DNA from: a virus | Lineage: Duplodnaviria > Heunggongvirae > Uroviricota > Caudoviricetes | IMG/VR virus record: IMGVR_UViG_2671180395_000017 | Reading direction: 5' to 3' (one strand) | DNA length: 11,338 bases | Part shown: positions 8,905 to 10,619 of the stretch, one piece after another | How the letters are laid out: the number at the start of each line of letters is the position of its first letter | How positions within the stretch are numbered: position 1 is the stretch's first letter | The notes under the pieces: generated by a model | Told to the model about the DNA's origin: nothing | Database searches by the model: none | What the model saw: the letters and a program-made list of their open reading frames with translations, nothing else | Position numbers and translations under genes: made by a program

Positions 8905-9102
8905 ATTTGTTGTGATTTTTTCTTTAGTTCATGTATTTCGATTTGTTTCTGAATTATCGGGGGTAGTGTCTTCCCTTTTCCCTGAGGCTTATCATGCAGT
9001 TATTTTCGCCATCTTGGTATTGTGGAAATACCGACATCCATAGCTTTGGTGAGCTCTGTTCAGGTGGCCAAATTCAGAAAACCATTACGGAGGAAGAAGG
9101 CG

Positions 9103-9669
9103 ATGGCTAAACCAGCGCGAAGACGATGTAACCGTAAAAGAGAAGATTTAACTGTTAAAAGGATATTTGAGTTACTAAGTTTCGATAAATCTACCGGGGT
9201 ATTTAGATGGAAAGTTCCCACTCAGGGAAGGATAGCATTAAATAGTGTTGCTGGAGCTTTTGATTCCAACGGTTATTCAATGATCATGATAGATGGGCGT
9301 AGATATAAAACTCACGTCTTAGTTTTTTACATAACTCATAATCGTTGGCCTGCTGGTCAAATTGACCACGTTAATGGAATTAGGACCGACAATAGGCCAG
9401 AAAATTTAAGAGAATGCCTGCCAATAGAAAATTCAAGAAATATAAGGATCCGAAAGAATAGCAAATCAGGTTGCAGAGGGGTTACTTGGCACAAACGACA
9501 GAAAAAATGGAATGTTAGGCTAGGATTCCATGGCAAGAGTAAACACTTCGGATGCTTTGATGATCTGGAGTTAGCGGTACTAGTTGCTGAAGAAGCCCGA
9601 GATAAGTATTACGGTGATTTTTCCGGCAACGAAAGGAGCACTTATGCGAATCTATCGAAGGAAATGTAA
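9103..9669 (+). CDS. HNH homing endonuclease with C-terminal AP2-type DNA-binding domain; its first 9 codons are identical to the ninG start
   Basis: ATG at 9103 preceded by GGAGGAAGAAGG. Protein [38 protein letters not shown]...[64 protein letters not shown] (HNH_3-type motif IDHxNG...DNR..NL) followed by [52 protein letters not shown] (AP2-like). Visibly AT-rich. The ORF-track start at 9022 is rejected in favour of 9103. Confidence 0.8.
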
Positions 9670-9823
9670 ATGTTGCAATGAATGGTTTATACCAAAATAT
9701 CAAAATCAATATTGGTGTAATGAGATTTGTGGAACCAAGATAGCACTCGAACGACGAAGTAAAGAACGCGAAAAAGCGGAAAAGGCAGAAAAGGCAGCAG
9801 AGAAGAAACGACGACGAGAGGAG
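9644..9823 (+). CDS. NinG-like protein, divergent (recoded) 5' portion, partial; runs into the N gap
   Basis: ATG at 9644 preceded by GGAG at 5-nt spacing, overlapping the HNH 3' end. Translation [60 protein letters not shown]. The first 28 residues are a diverged, AT-rich version of the NinG zinc-ribbon N-terminus; 9728-9823 is identical, bar one synonymous change, to 10092-10187 in the intact ninG. Confidence 0.65.
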
Positions 9824-9873
9824 NNNNNNNNNNNNNNNNNNNNNNNNNNNNNNNNNNNNNNNNNNNNNNNNNN
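9824..9873. other. Run of 50 N (gap) between the NinG-like fragment and the ninF 3' end
   Basis: Exactly 50 n; the coding frames on the two sides belong to different genes. Confidence 0.9.
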
Positions 9874-10006
9874 CGAGCGGGCTTTAACGTGCGCTAACTG
9901 CGGTCAGAAGCTGCATGTGCTGGAAGTTCACGTGTGTGAGCACTGCTGCGCAGAGCTGATGAGCGATTCGAATAGCTCGATGCACGAGGAAAAAGATGAT
10001 GGCTAA
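9874..10006 (+). CDS. Small zinc-ribbon nin-region protein, 3' fragment (NinF-like by position and sequence)
   Basis: Open frame from the gap edge to TAA at 10004-10006: [43 protein letters not shown]. CxxC...CxxCC motif; its stop overlaps the ninG start. Assignment to NinF is from memory and position only. Confidence 0.55.
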
Positions 10007-10619
10007 ACCAGCGCGAAGACGATGTAAAAACGATGAATGTCGGGAATGGTTTCACCCTGCATTCGCTAATCAGTGGTGGTGCTCTCCAGAGTGTGGAACC
10101 AAGATAGCACTCGAACGACGAAGCAAAGAACGCGAAAAAGCGGAAAAGGCAGAAAAGGCAGCAGAGAAGAAACGACGACGAGAGGAGCAGAAACAGAAAG
10201 ATAAACTTAAGATTCAAAAACTCGCCTTAAAGCCCCGCAGTTACTGGATTAAACAAGCCCAACAAGCCGTACACGCCTTCATCAGAGAAAGAGACCGCGA
10301 CTTACCATGTATCTCGTGCGGAACGCTCACGTCTGCTCAGTGGGATGCCGGACATTACCGGACAACTGCTGCGGCACCTCAACTCCGATTTGATGAACGC
10401 AATATTCACAAGCAATGCGTGGTGTGCAACCAGCACAAAAGCGGAAATCTCGTTCCGTATCGCGTCGAACTGATTAGCCGCATCGGGCAGGAAGCAGTAG
10501 AGGAAATCGAATCAAACCATAACCGCTATCGCTGGACTGTCGAAGAGTGCAGGGCCATCAAGGCGGAGTATCAACAGAAACTTAAAAAACTGCGAAACAG
10601 CAGAAGTGAGGTTGCATGA
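9999..10619 (+). CDS. ninG: NinG (Rap) protein, lambda-type
   Basis: [71 protein letters not shown]...[105 protein letters not shown]. Near-identical to lambda NinG as I recall it. An in-frame ATG at 9996 is an alternative start. Confidence 0.9.

Follow-up and report, generated by a model that had tools for sequence, protein, structure and literature searches.

The 11,338-nucleotide (nt) stretch analysed here (the window; IMG/VR record IMGVR_UViG_2671180395_000017) carries a foreign cassette of 596 nt (positions 9132–9727, plus strand) within the 5' end of a lambda-type ninG gene, and this cassette encodes an HNH-AP2 endonuclease. NinG, also known as Rap, is a junction-specific endonuclease, and ninG is a phage recombination gene. 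On its sequence features we regard the cassette, with moderate confidence, as a free-standing HNH-AP2 homing-endonuclease gene (HEG) cassette, and the gene that it carries is probably a small selfish nuclease gene. The cassette itself is real, common and already annotated. It has a single origin, is either present or absent at a conserved site, shows low diversity on many genetic backgrounds and maintains its open reading frame (ORF).

The architecture of the locus had been outlined in a preliminary description of the window, which pointed to a 30-mer, GATGGCTAAACCAGCGCGAAGACGATGTAA, occurring at 9102–9131 and again at 9998–10027. The two copies match exactly and the match extends on neither side; by chance, a perfect repeat of this length would arise in 11 kb with a probability of ~1e-10. 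At the first copy, a remnant of the ninF 3' end together with the ribosome-binding region of ninG (9086–9102, plus strand) leads into a left homology arm (9103–9131, plus strand), which comprises the first nine codons plus 2 nt of lambda-type ninG (MAKPARRRC) and now forms the start of the HNH ORF. Matches to phage nin regions begin at 9086–9090; the sequence that precedes ~9086 in the O157-type locus has no relationship to the nin region. From the ATG at 9103 the ninG frame runs into the AT-rich HNH-AP2 ORF and reaches a stop codon at 9667–9669, giving a protein of 188 amino acids (aa). A new Shine-Dalgarno sequence (AAGGAG, 9633–9638) and a new ATG (9644), both situated inside the 3' end of the HNH ORF (9633–9646, plus strand), restart a NinG-like protein, the divergent 5' end of which (termed ninG') covers 28 codons (9644–9727, plus strand). 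Lambda-type ninG resumes in the right homology arm (9728–9823, plus strand), which is ended by the contig end and differs from the corresponding part of the second ninG copy (10092–10187) at position 9760 only, a T/C change that is synonymous (AGT/AGC, Ser). The repeat, the HNH reading frame, the restart at 9644 and the return of canonical ninG at 9728 had all been given correctly in the preliminary description.

Alignment of ninG loci with and without the HNH gene, as the same description had proposed, mapped the insertion exactly. The filled site is represented by IMG/VR locus L048, which has ninF directly upstream, and the empty site by E. coli B27 (L072). Their left flanks are collinear and 98.4% identical through ...CGATGTAA, after which 596 nt stand in place of 64 nt, and homology is back at TGTGGAACC... 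with 94.4% identity. In lambda-type ninG, the replaced 64 nt begin at the third base of codon 10 and end with codon 31. The cassette has a guanine-cytosine (GC) content of 37.8%, compared to 49% for ninG. As the cassette begins within ninG codon 10, the HNH ORF lacks a start of its own, and the ribosome-binding site and the first nine codons of ninG serve it instead. At its 3' end, the ORF overlaps the new ninG start by 26 nt, with the C-terminal tail of the HNH protein reading into ninG'. The HNH ORF possesses its own stop codon and ninG' its own Shine-Dalgarno sequence and ATG; no Rfam family was found within 8700–10300 at E ≤1, hence no known intron surrounds the HNH ORF. A group I or group II intron or an intein around the ORF was ruled out on these grounds. 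Across the left cassette junction, Tandem Repeats Finder revealed an imperfect 20-nt direct repeat (9121–9161; AGACGATGTAACCGTAAAAG / AGAAGATTTAACTGTTAAAAG; two copies, 80% match, score 54), which could be due to chance or be a trace of the microhomology behind the original illegitimate join.

The 84-nt 5' end of ninG' and the canonical 93-nt 5' end are identical at 54 of 95 nucleotides (57%) and have GC contents of 28.6% and 49.5%, respectively; this segment of ninG' is even AT-richer than the HNH gene. The N-terminus of NinG' shares ~12 of its 28 residues with the canonical protein and retains four cysteines in addition to the Trp/Phe positions of a zinc-ribbon pattern. The preliminary description had correctly noted the retained Cys/Trp positions, and had further seen in the locus the pattern of a HEG that carries a recoded version of its own target. 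A discrete HNH-AP2 cassette with a divergent ninG 5' end, forming an island of low diversity, is indeed present; the term “recoded”, however, does not fit a segment with 57% nucleotide identity and ~12 of 28 shared residues. Judged by its composition and identity, the ninG' 5' end is a divergent homologue from AT-rich DNA rather than a product of synonymous recoding, and is most simply flanking DNA derived from the donor. The Prokaryotic Genome Annotation Pipeline (PGAP) starts NinG at the same ATG (position 10745 of the Sp17-type locus L001, which equals 9644 of the window). The full chimeric NinG' has 203 aa in L001, 60 codons of which lie within the window, and matches PF05766 over residues 4–197 (E 3e-82) as well as phrog_171 (E 1e-116). 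A search for the donor by tblastn on 50,697 phage records, by a word-indexed search of 5.8 billion clustered proteins and by phmmer against 1.84 billion representatives did not find the source of the ninG' 5' end: the matches were the cassette itself and ordinary NinG N-termini with 51–68% identity, and in none of these collections did the ninG' N-terminus occur apart from the HNH gene.

The HNH-AP2 protein (9103–9669, plus strand; ECs_3504 of E. coli O157:H7 Sakai, RefSeq WP_001108081) has nine ninG-derived residues at its N-terminus. It matches the Pfam family HNH_3 (PF13392) with 42.7 bits (cut-off, 24.8 bits; E 4e-11) and phrog_99, “HNH endonuclease”, with an E-value of 7e-71. The residues D88, H89, N101 and N110, which are catalytic/metal-binding or structural, are invariant in an alignment of 12 family sequences and are kept in 56 of the 58 full-length natural copies. 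An AlphaFold (AF2) model built from the 12-sequence alignment has a mean predicted local distance difference test (pLDDT) score of 81.5. Structural similarity search using Foldseek gave I-HmuI (PDB 1u3e) as the top PDB match, with a probability of 0.97 but an E-value of 9e-3 and a template modeling (TM) score of 0.36. Residues ~122–173 match the AP2 domain of AtERF1 (PDB 1gcc), with a target-normalised TM score of 0.67, a root-mean-square deviation of 1.3 Å over 51 residues and a probability of 1.0, and also the AP2 domains of TEM1 and WRI1, all of them a three-stranded sheet packed on a helix. A sequence search of the PDB returned a weak AP2 match only, and the predicted AP2 assignment comes mainly from the fold, not from the sequence score. 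The family core starts ~12 residues before the motif YDPxTGVFRW and ends near YYGx. Residues 1–11 and 181–188 lie outside this core and have pLDDT scores <50; they thus look like acquired extensions. No relatives of the protein fall in the range between 98% and 47% identity. Its distant homologues are encoded in unrelated phage contexts, namely in a T7-like replication region and beside a tail-fibre gene, and no ninG was found beside the homologues at six such loci (L004, L005, L007, L008, L069 and L070).

The cassette is widespread in E. coli. It was found in 538 of 5426 complete genomes, at 571 places, with a coverage of at least 80% in all 538 genomes and an identity of at least 99% in 536 of them; the serotypes include O157:H7, O26:H11 and O111:H8. 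Two Shiga toxin phages, AU6Stx1 and SH2026Stx1, are its only carriers among the 50,697 phage records; in both, ninH, Q and stx1 follow downstream of the cassette. RefSeq annotation at the cassette reads “HNH endonuclease” followed by “recombination protein NinG”. Two upstream contexts were distinguished among the 59 cassette loci that we analysed (IMG/VR and references): an unrelated block with a TATTTC microsatellite in 39 loci, including those of the Sakai prophage Sp17 and of AU6Stx1, and an intact ninF, represented by several alleles, in the other 20, including E. coli O111 strain 11128 and E. coli PK8241. One genome has cassette copies in both contexts. The Mtase-NinE-NinF module continues into either NinG or HNH, and the identities of the two groups are interleaved. 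PK8241 (L011, 4550–5763) is the sole partial cassette match among the 538 genomes, as an element of the insertion sequence family IS3 sits exactly between the end of the HNH core and the start of ninG', parting the two halves. HNH genes of other kinds also occur nearby: in E. coli SW07096 (L155) a different HNH gene is located between ninB and a methyltransferase gene (378–905), and an HNH remnant lies between two ninF copies (1942–1995). The nin region thus seems to collect several unrelated HNH genes.

Comparison of the 59 loci revealed that the cassette is far more uniform than its surroundings. The mean identity is 99.6% in the cassette, compared to 66% in the 600 nt upstream, 94.7% in the ninG 3' part and 66% in the next kb; nucleotide diversity (π) is ~0.004 within the cassette and 0.02–0.09 outside. 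The cassette junctions are identical at all loci, and the chimera therefore arose once. A neighbour-joining tree of the 528-nt ninG 3' part, built from 36 cassette-plus and 51 cassette-minus alleles, requires a minimum of 19 changes in cassette state, and the nearest neighbour of 10 of the 36 cassette-plus alleles is cassette-minus. The site is conserved as well. Among 79 ninG genes free of the cassette, the first 29 nt do not vary, and the 64 nt that the cassette replaces have a π of 0.012, compared to 0.074 at the ninF 3' end, so that the cassette occupies the locally best-conserved sequence. An intact HNH ORF is present in 58 of the 59 loci; this ORF contains 11 synonymous and 12 non-synonymous polymorphisms, the latter mostly singletons, with a ratio of non-synonymous to synonymous polymorphism (pN/pS) of 0.29; purifying selection acts on it. 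NinG' is mostly full length across the loci. The individual departures comprise a 1-nt deletion that cuts the HNH ORF to 76 aa (L068), a ninG' rearranged after codon 32 (L037), a NinG' shortened to 111 aa (L025), and short NinG' reads of 35–77 aa in L014, L024 and L044, which may be truncations at contig ends.

Features by which HEGs are recognised were thus found here: presence or absence at one exact site between otherwise homologous nin regions, a cassette allele that is devoid of the 64 nt of the empty site and would on that account be immune, and a cassette that is more uniform than its flanks on many backgrounds. We propose that the donor was an unsampled AT-rich phage in which the HNH gene immediately preceded a ninG homologue. 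The right-hand crossover would have taken place in conserved ninG sequence and the left-hand join would have been illegitimate, leaving lambda-type homology on both sides of the cassette. In the product, the ribosome-binding site and first nine codons of ninG form the start of the HNH gene, and the resident ninG continues at codon 32 to yield a full-length chimeric NinG. During lytic growth, the nuclease may nick or cut cassette-free ninG in or near the conserved 64-nt stretch, and repair from a cassette-bearing genome would copy the cassette in; the divergent ninG 5' end would act as an uncut, non-target allele. The cassette would accordingly have spread by break repair and not by ordinary recombination.

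Free-standing phage HEGs are known to cleave the HEG-less alleles of a neighbouring gene and to spread by repair with co-conversion, and they can split host genes or fuse with them (PMC2988022, PMC2790892, PMC2629481). Free-standing HNH endonucleases of T4-like phages include MobE of T4, mobE of Aeromonas phage Aeh1 inside nrdA, and mobA between T4 genes 39 and 60 (PMC2790892, PMC2988022). Similar to these, the ninG cassette has a small HNH gene that is associated with neither intron nor intein, is sporadic in otherwise collinear phage genomes, and is found in or next to a conserved DNA-metabolism gene whose function survives, with spread by break repair to be expected. However, its HNH protein has no sequence kinship with theirs beyond the HNH motif. 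In addition, ninG is not split into two polypeptides; instead, a divergent version with a start of its own has taken the place of the first 31 codons, and the putative HEG is translated from the start of the host gene. The setting is a temperate lambdoid phage rather than a virulent T-even phage, and the activity is here predicted from sequence.

Other known systems share single features with the cassette. I-HmuI of Bacillus phage SPO1 (PDB 1U3E), an HNH nicking endonuclease, has an HNH_3-type core, an N-terminal β-sheet DNA-binding part and a C-terminal DNA-binding module, as predicted for the ninG-cassette protein; it differs in being encoded in a group I intron and in having a C-terminal helix-turn-helix where the ninG-cassette protein has the AP2 domain, and the two proteins share 14% sequence identity, with the Foldseek E-value of 9e-3. 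HNH-AP2 endonucleases, whose AP2 proteins have been discussed as relatives of plant AP2/ERF, are a recognised architecture in phages and cyanobacteria, among them T4-related and Xanthomonas phages (PMC2993671, PMC2248197). They too have an HNH_3 nuclease followed by a single AP2 domain, but none has been reported in ninG or in lambdoid phages. In gene 31 of Salmonella phage epsilon34, a putative HNH homing endonuclease is joined in frame to the N-terminus of eaE (PMC2629481). Epsilon34, a P22-like phage, is lambdoid too, and the start of a resident gene is likewise borrowed, yet the gene, the operon and the HNH lineage are different and no replacement 5' end was described. The Seg endonucleases SegF and SegG of T4 (PMC2988022) resemble the proposed system in intronless homing, with immunity by a difference in the target sequence and co-conversion of the flanks; by contrast, they are GIY-YIG enzymes that cleave hundreds of bp from the HEG, whereas the putative target of the ninG-cassette enzyme is the segment that is physically replaced. 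The cassette is distinctive in combining translation from the host-gene start with a replacement 5' end that it brings along and with a setting in temperate lambdoid phages.

Several observations weigh against homing. The identical junctions document one insertion event, and ordinary homologous recombination among mosaic lambdoid phages could give the same scatter of the cassette over the ninG tree. The fixation index (Fst) between cassette-plus and cassette-minus ninG 3' parts is ~0–0.1 from the first 44 nt onward, and no cassette-linked haplotype, as a co-conversion tract from the donor would leave, is detectable in the ninG 3' flank. The cassette-minus sample behind the tree, the Fst values and the diversity of the insertion site was drawn from the 80 loci most similar to the NinG of the window. 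On the protein side, the Foldseek E-values are weak, so that the HNH fold match is supportive but not decisive, and the Pfam AP2 score (22.1 bits, E 2e-4) is below the cut-off of 33.3. Our literature search returned no paper on ECs_3504, on this HNH gene or on HEGs at ninG. Finally, the same genome holds, besides the cassette allele of Sp17, a cassette-free ninG allele in the prophage Sp3 (ECs_0812), which stayed uninvaded beside Sp17 across the O157:H7 lineage. This is expected if the defective Sp17 never expresses its nin region, and also if the enzyme spares ninG; as Sp17 is without the early region and probably never expresses the gene, the persistence of the Sp3 allele is uninformative.

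Part of this evidence would be accounted for equally well if the cassette were an ordinary mosaic module, captured once by illegitimate recombination and then shuffled by homologous recombination in the ninF/ninG flanks, its HNH protein having another role (defence or counter-defence, DNA processing) or no site preference for ninG. We regard this explanation, the main rival of homing, as possible, although rather unlikely. It is in line with the single origin deduced from the junctions, and it explains the Fst of ~0 right beside the cassette and the missing co-conversion tract just as well as homing does. Lambdoid nin regions are notoriously mosaic, other HNH genes are present elsewhere in them, and reading the role of an HNH gene from its position has been warned against (PMC12315714). 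However, the cassette is 5–20 times less diverse than its flanks and yet stands on at least 19 ninG 3' backgrounds and beside several ninF alleles, so that a mosaic module would need very fast spread. Moreover, the stretch removed by the insertion is precisely the locally best-conserved one, the HNH ORF is under purifying selection, and the architecture is of the HEG type, with HNH_3 plus a small DNA-binding domain, AT-rich composition, sporadic occurrence and homologues at unrelated sites. Ordinary shuffling thus explains the low diversity of the cassette and its HEG-like architecture less well than homing.

It is improbable that the cassette is a decaying relic, that is, a once mobile and now inactive passenger kept since ninG' needs the Shine-Dalgarno sequence and ATG within it. 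Such decay would fit the defective prophage in which the cassette resides here, the existence of one frameshifted and one IS3-interrupted copy, and the lack of close relatives beyond the cluster of 98–100% identity. The intact ORF in 58 of 59 loci, the kept catalytic residues and the pN/pS of 0.29 speak against it, as does the presence of the cassette in apparently complete prophages and in the isolated phages AU6Stx1 and SH2026Stx1.

The arrangement of the window itself calls for a separate account, as the window is a chain of draft contigs separated by three runs of exactly 50 N (8085–8134, 8380–8429 and 9824–9873). The preliminary description had taken note of the last of these gaps; the two further runs lie upstream of it. 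The first contig (1–8084) matches the P2-like prophage Sp13 of E. coli O157:H7 Sakai, with IS30, and the second (8135–8379) is an internal IS30 piece that matches two IS30 copies. The third (8430–9823), comprising an IS30 end, the “endonuclease” gene ECs_3504 and the 5' part of ECs_3503, corresponds to Sp17, a defective lambda-like prophage at ssrA; it matches Sakai Sp17 with 0 mismatches, the sole difference being a 48-nt change in microsatellite length. The fourth (9874–11338, plus strand) is 100% identical to the Sakai prophage Sp3 at 896,272–897,736. Sp17 and Sp3 are 2.59 Mb apart in Sakai, and the two pieces are likewise apart in many other complete O157 genomes (for instance, at 3,592,493 and 900,483 in TR01). 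Two contig ends reach exactly 63 nt into a shared repeat: 8022–8084 is a stretch common to the IS30 copies of Sp13 and Sp17, and 9761–9823 is the stretch past the last base that distinguishes Sp17 from Sp3. These ends point to a k-mer graph assembler halting at repeats. The 50-N spacer at 9824–9873 parts contigs that are not adjacent in the genome, and the HNH cassette beside an intact ninG in the window is a scaffolding artefact of contig concatenation.

The intact downstream ninG, which had been taken for a candidate cleavage-sensitive neighbour of the cassette, consequently belongs to Sp3. The possibility that the two halves stem from unrelated loci, which the preliminary description had itself raised, holds true for the juxtaposition, according to the complete genomes, but not for the cassette itself. 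A true tandem, in which a local duplication would have placed the cassette-bearing ninG 5' end directly upstream of ninF'-ninG, is suggested by the order of the pieces in the window only and is extremely unlikely, given the 50-N spacer between the copies with two more N runs nearby, the perfect matches of the pieces to different prophages in Sakai and dozens of complete O157 genomes, the contig ends 63 nt into repeats, and the finding that no complete E. coli genome joins 1–8787 to 8900–9824. As the copies are not contiguous in complete genomes, we rejected a local tandem duplication of the 5' end of ninG.

The true context of the Sp17 HNH locus is an IS30 end (8430–8787, minus strand), the left inverted repeat of which ends at 8787; in Sakai, “IS30 partial” is annotated adjoining ECs_3504. 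An ORF at 8243–8725 (minus strand) contains the Pfam domain HTH_38. Between the IS30 end and the HNH locus, outside the cassette, lies the microsatellite (TATTTC)x17.8 (8802–8908), a perfect hexanucleotide repeat that exceeds its counterparts in Sakai Sp17 and PV15-279 by eight units (48 nt) and is thus a variable-number repeat. It is also found in AU6Stx1, upstream of a gene for a 590-aa protein on the minus strand. Downstream, the chimeric ninG of the real Sp17 locus runs on into the ninG 3' part and pphA. The Sp3 contig (9874–11338, plus strand) contains a ninF 3' remnant, the canonical ninG (9996/9999–10619, ECs_0812) and the phosphatase gene pphA (10616–11281). Upstream of the Sp3 ninG (9874–10006 in the window; Sakai L157, 7354–8394) there is only the short ninF 3' remnant, followed by a bet pseudogene on the opposite strand, most of the early and nin region being deleted in Sp3. 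From the ninG 3' part through pphA, Sp3 (10092–11338) and Sp17 (L156, 34704–33458) differ at one of 1247 positions, while other cassette-bearing ninG 3' alleles differ by 3–4%. This near-identity suggests recent gene conversion or shared ancestry between two prophages of one chromosome.

The cassette is present in about one-tenth of the complete E. coli genomes, including reference O157:H7 strains, and in two isolated Stx1 phages, and it is situated directly before the Q antiterminator region, from which the late genes and Shiga toxin expression are controlled. Concatenated draft contigs, as in the window, can mimic a tandem of a sensitive allele next to an immune allele. To our knowledge, homing endonucleases have been much studied in virulent T4-like phages and hardly at all in temperate lambdoid phages. 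We tentatively suggest, with low confidence, that the ECs_3504-type HNH-AP2 protein might be active in the latter, cutting the invariant ninG 5' end of co-resident or co-infecting phages upon induction or superinfection, and might thereby create a recombination hotspot that drives the exchange of late-regulation and toxin genes among the prophages of Shiga toxin-producing E. coli (STEC). If so, the hotspot would precede Q by 1–2 kb and, in Stx1 phages such as AU6Stx1 and SH2026Stx1, would also precede stx; the host gene is itself a recombination nuclease, the DNA-binding N-terminus of which is swapped by the element. Should the enzyme be active, the cassette would represent a simple homing system in lambda-like phages and a possible driver of STEC prophage recombination, as well as an example of a selfish gene that enters a coding sequence without killing it, by means of a borrowed start and a substitute 5' end.

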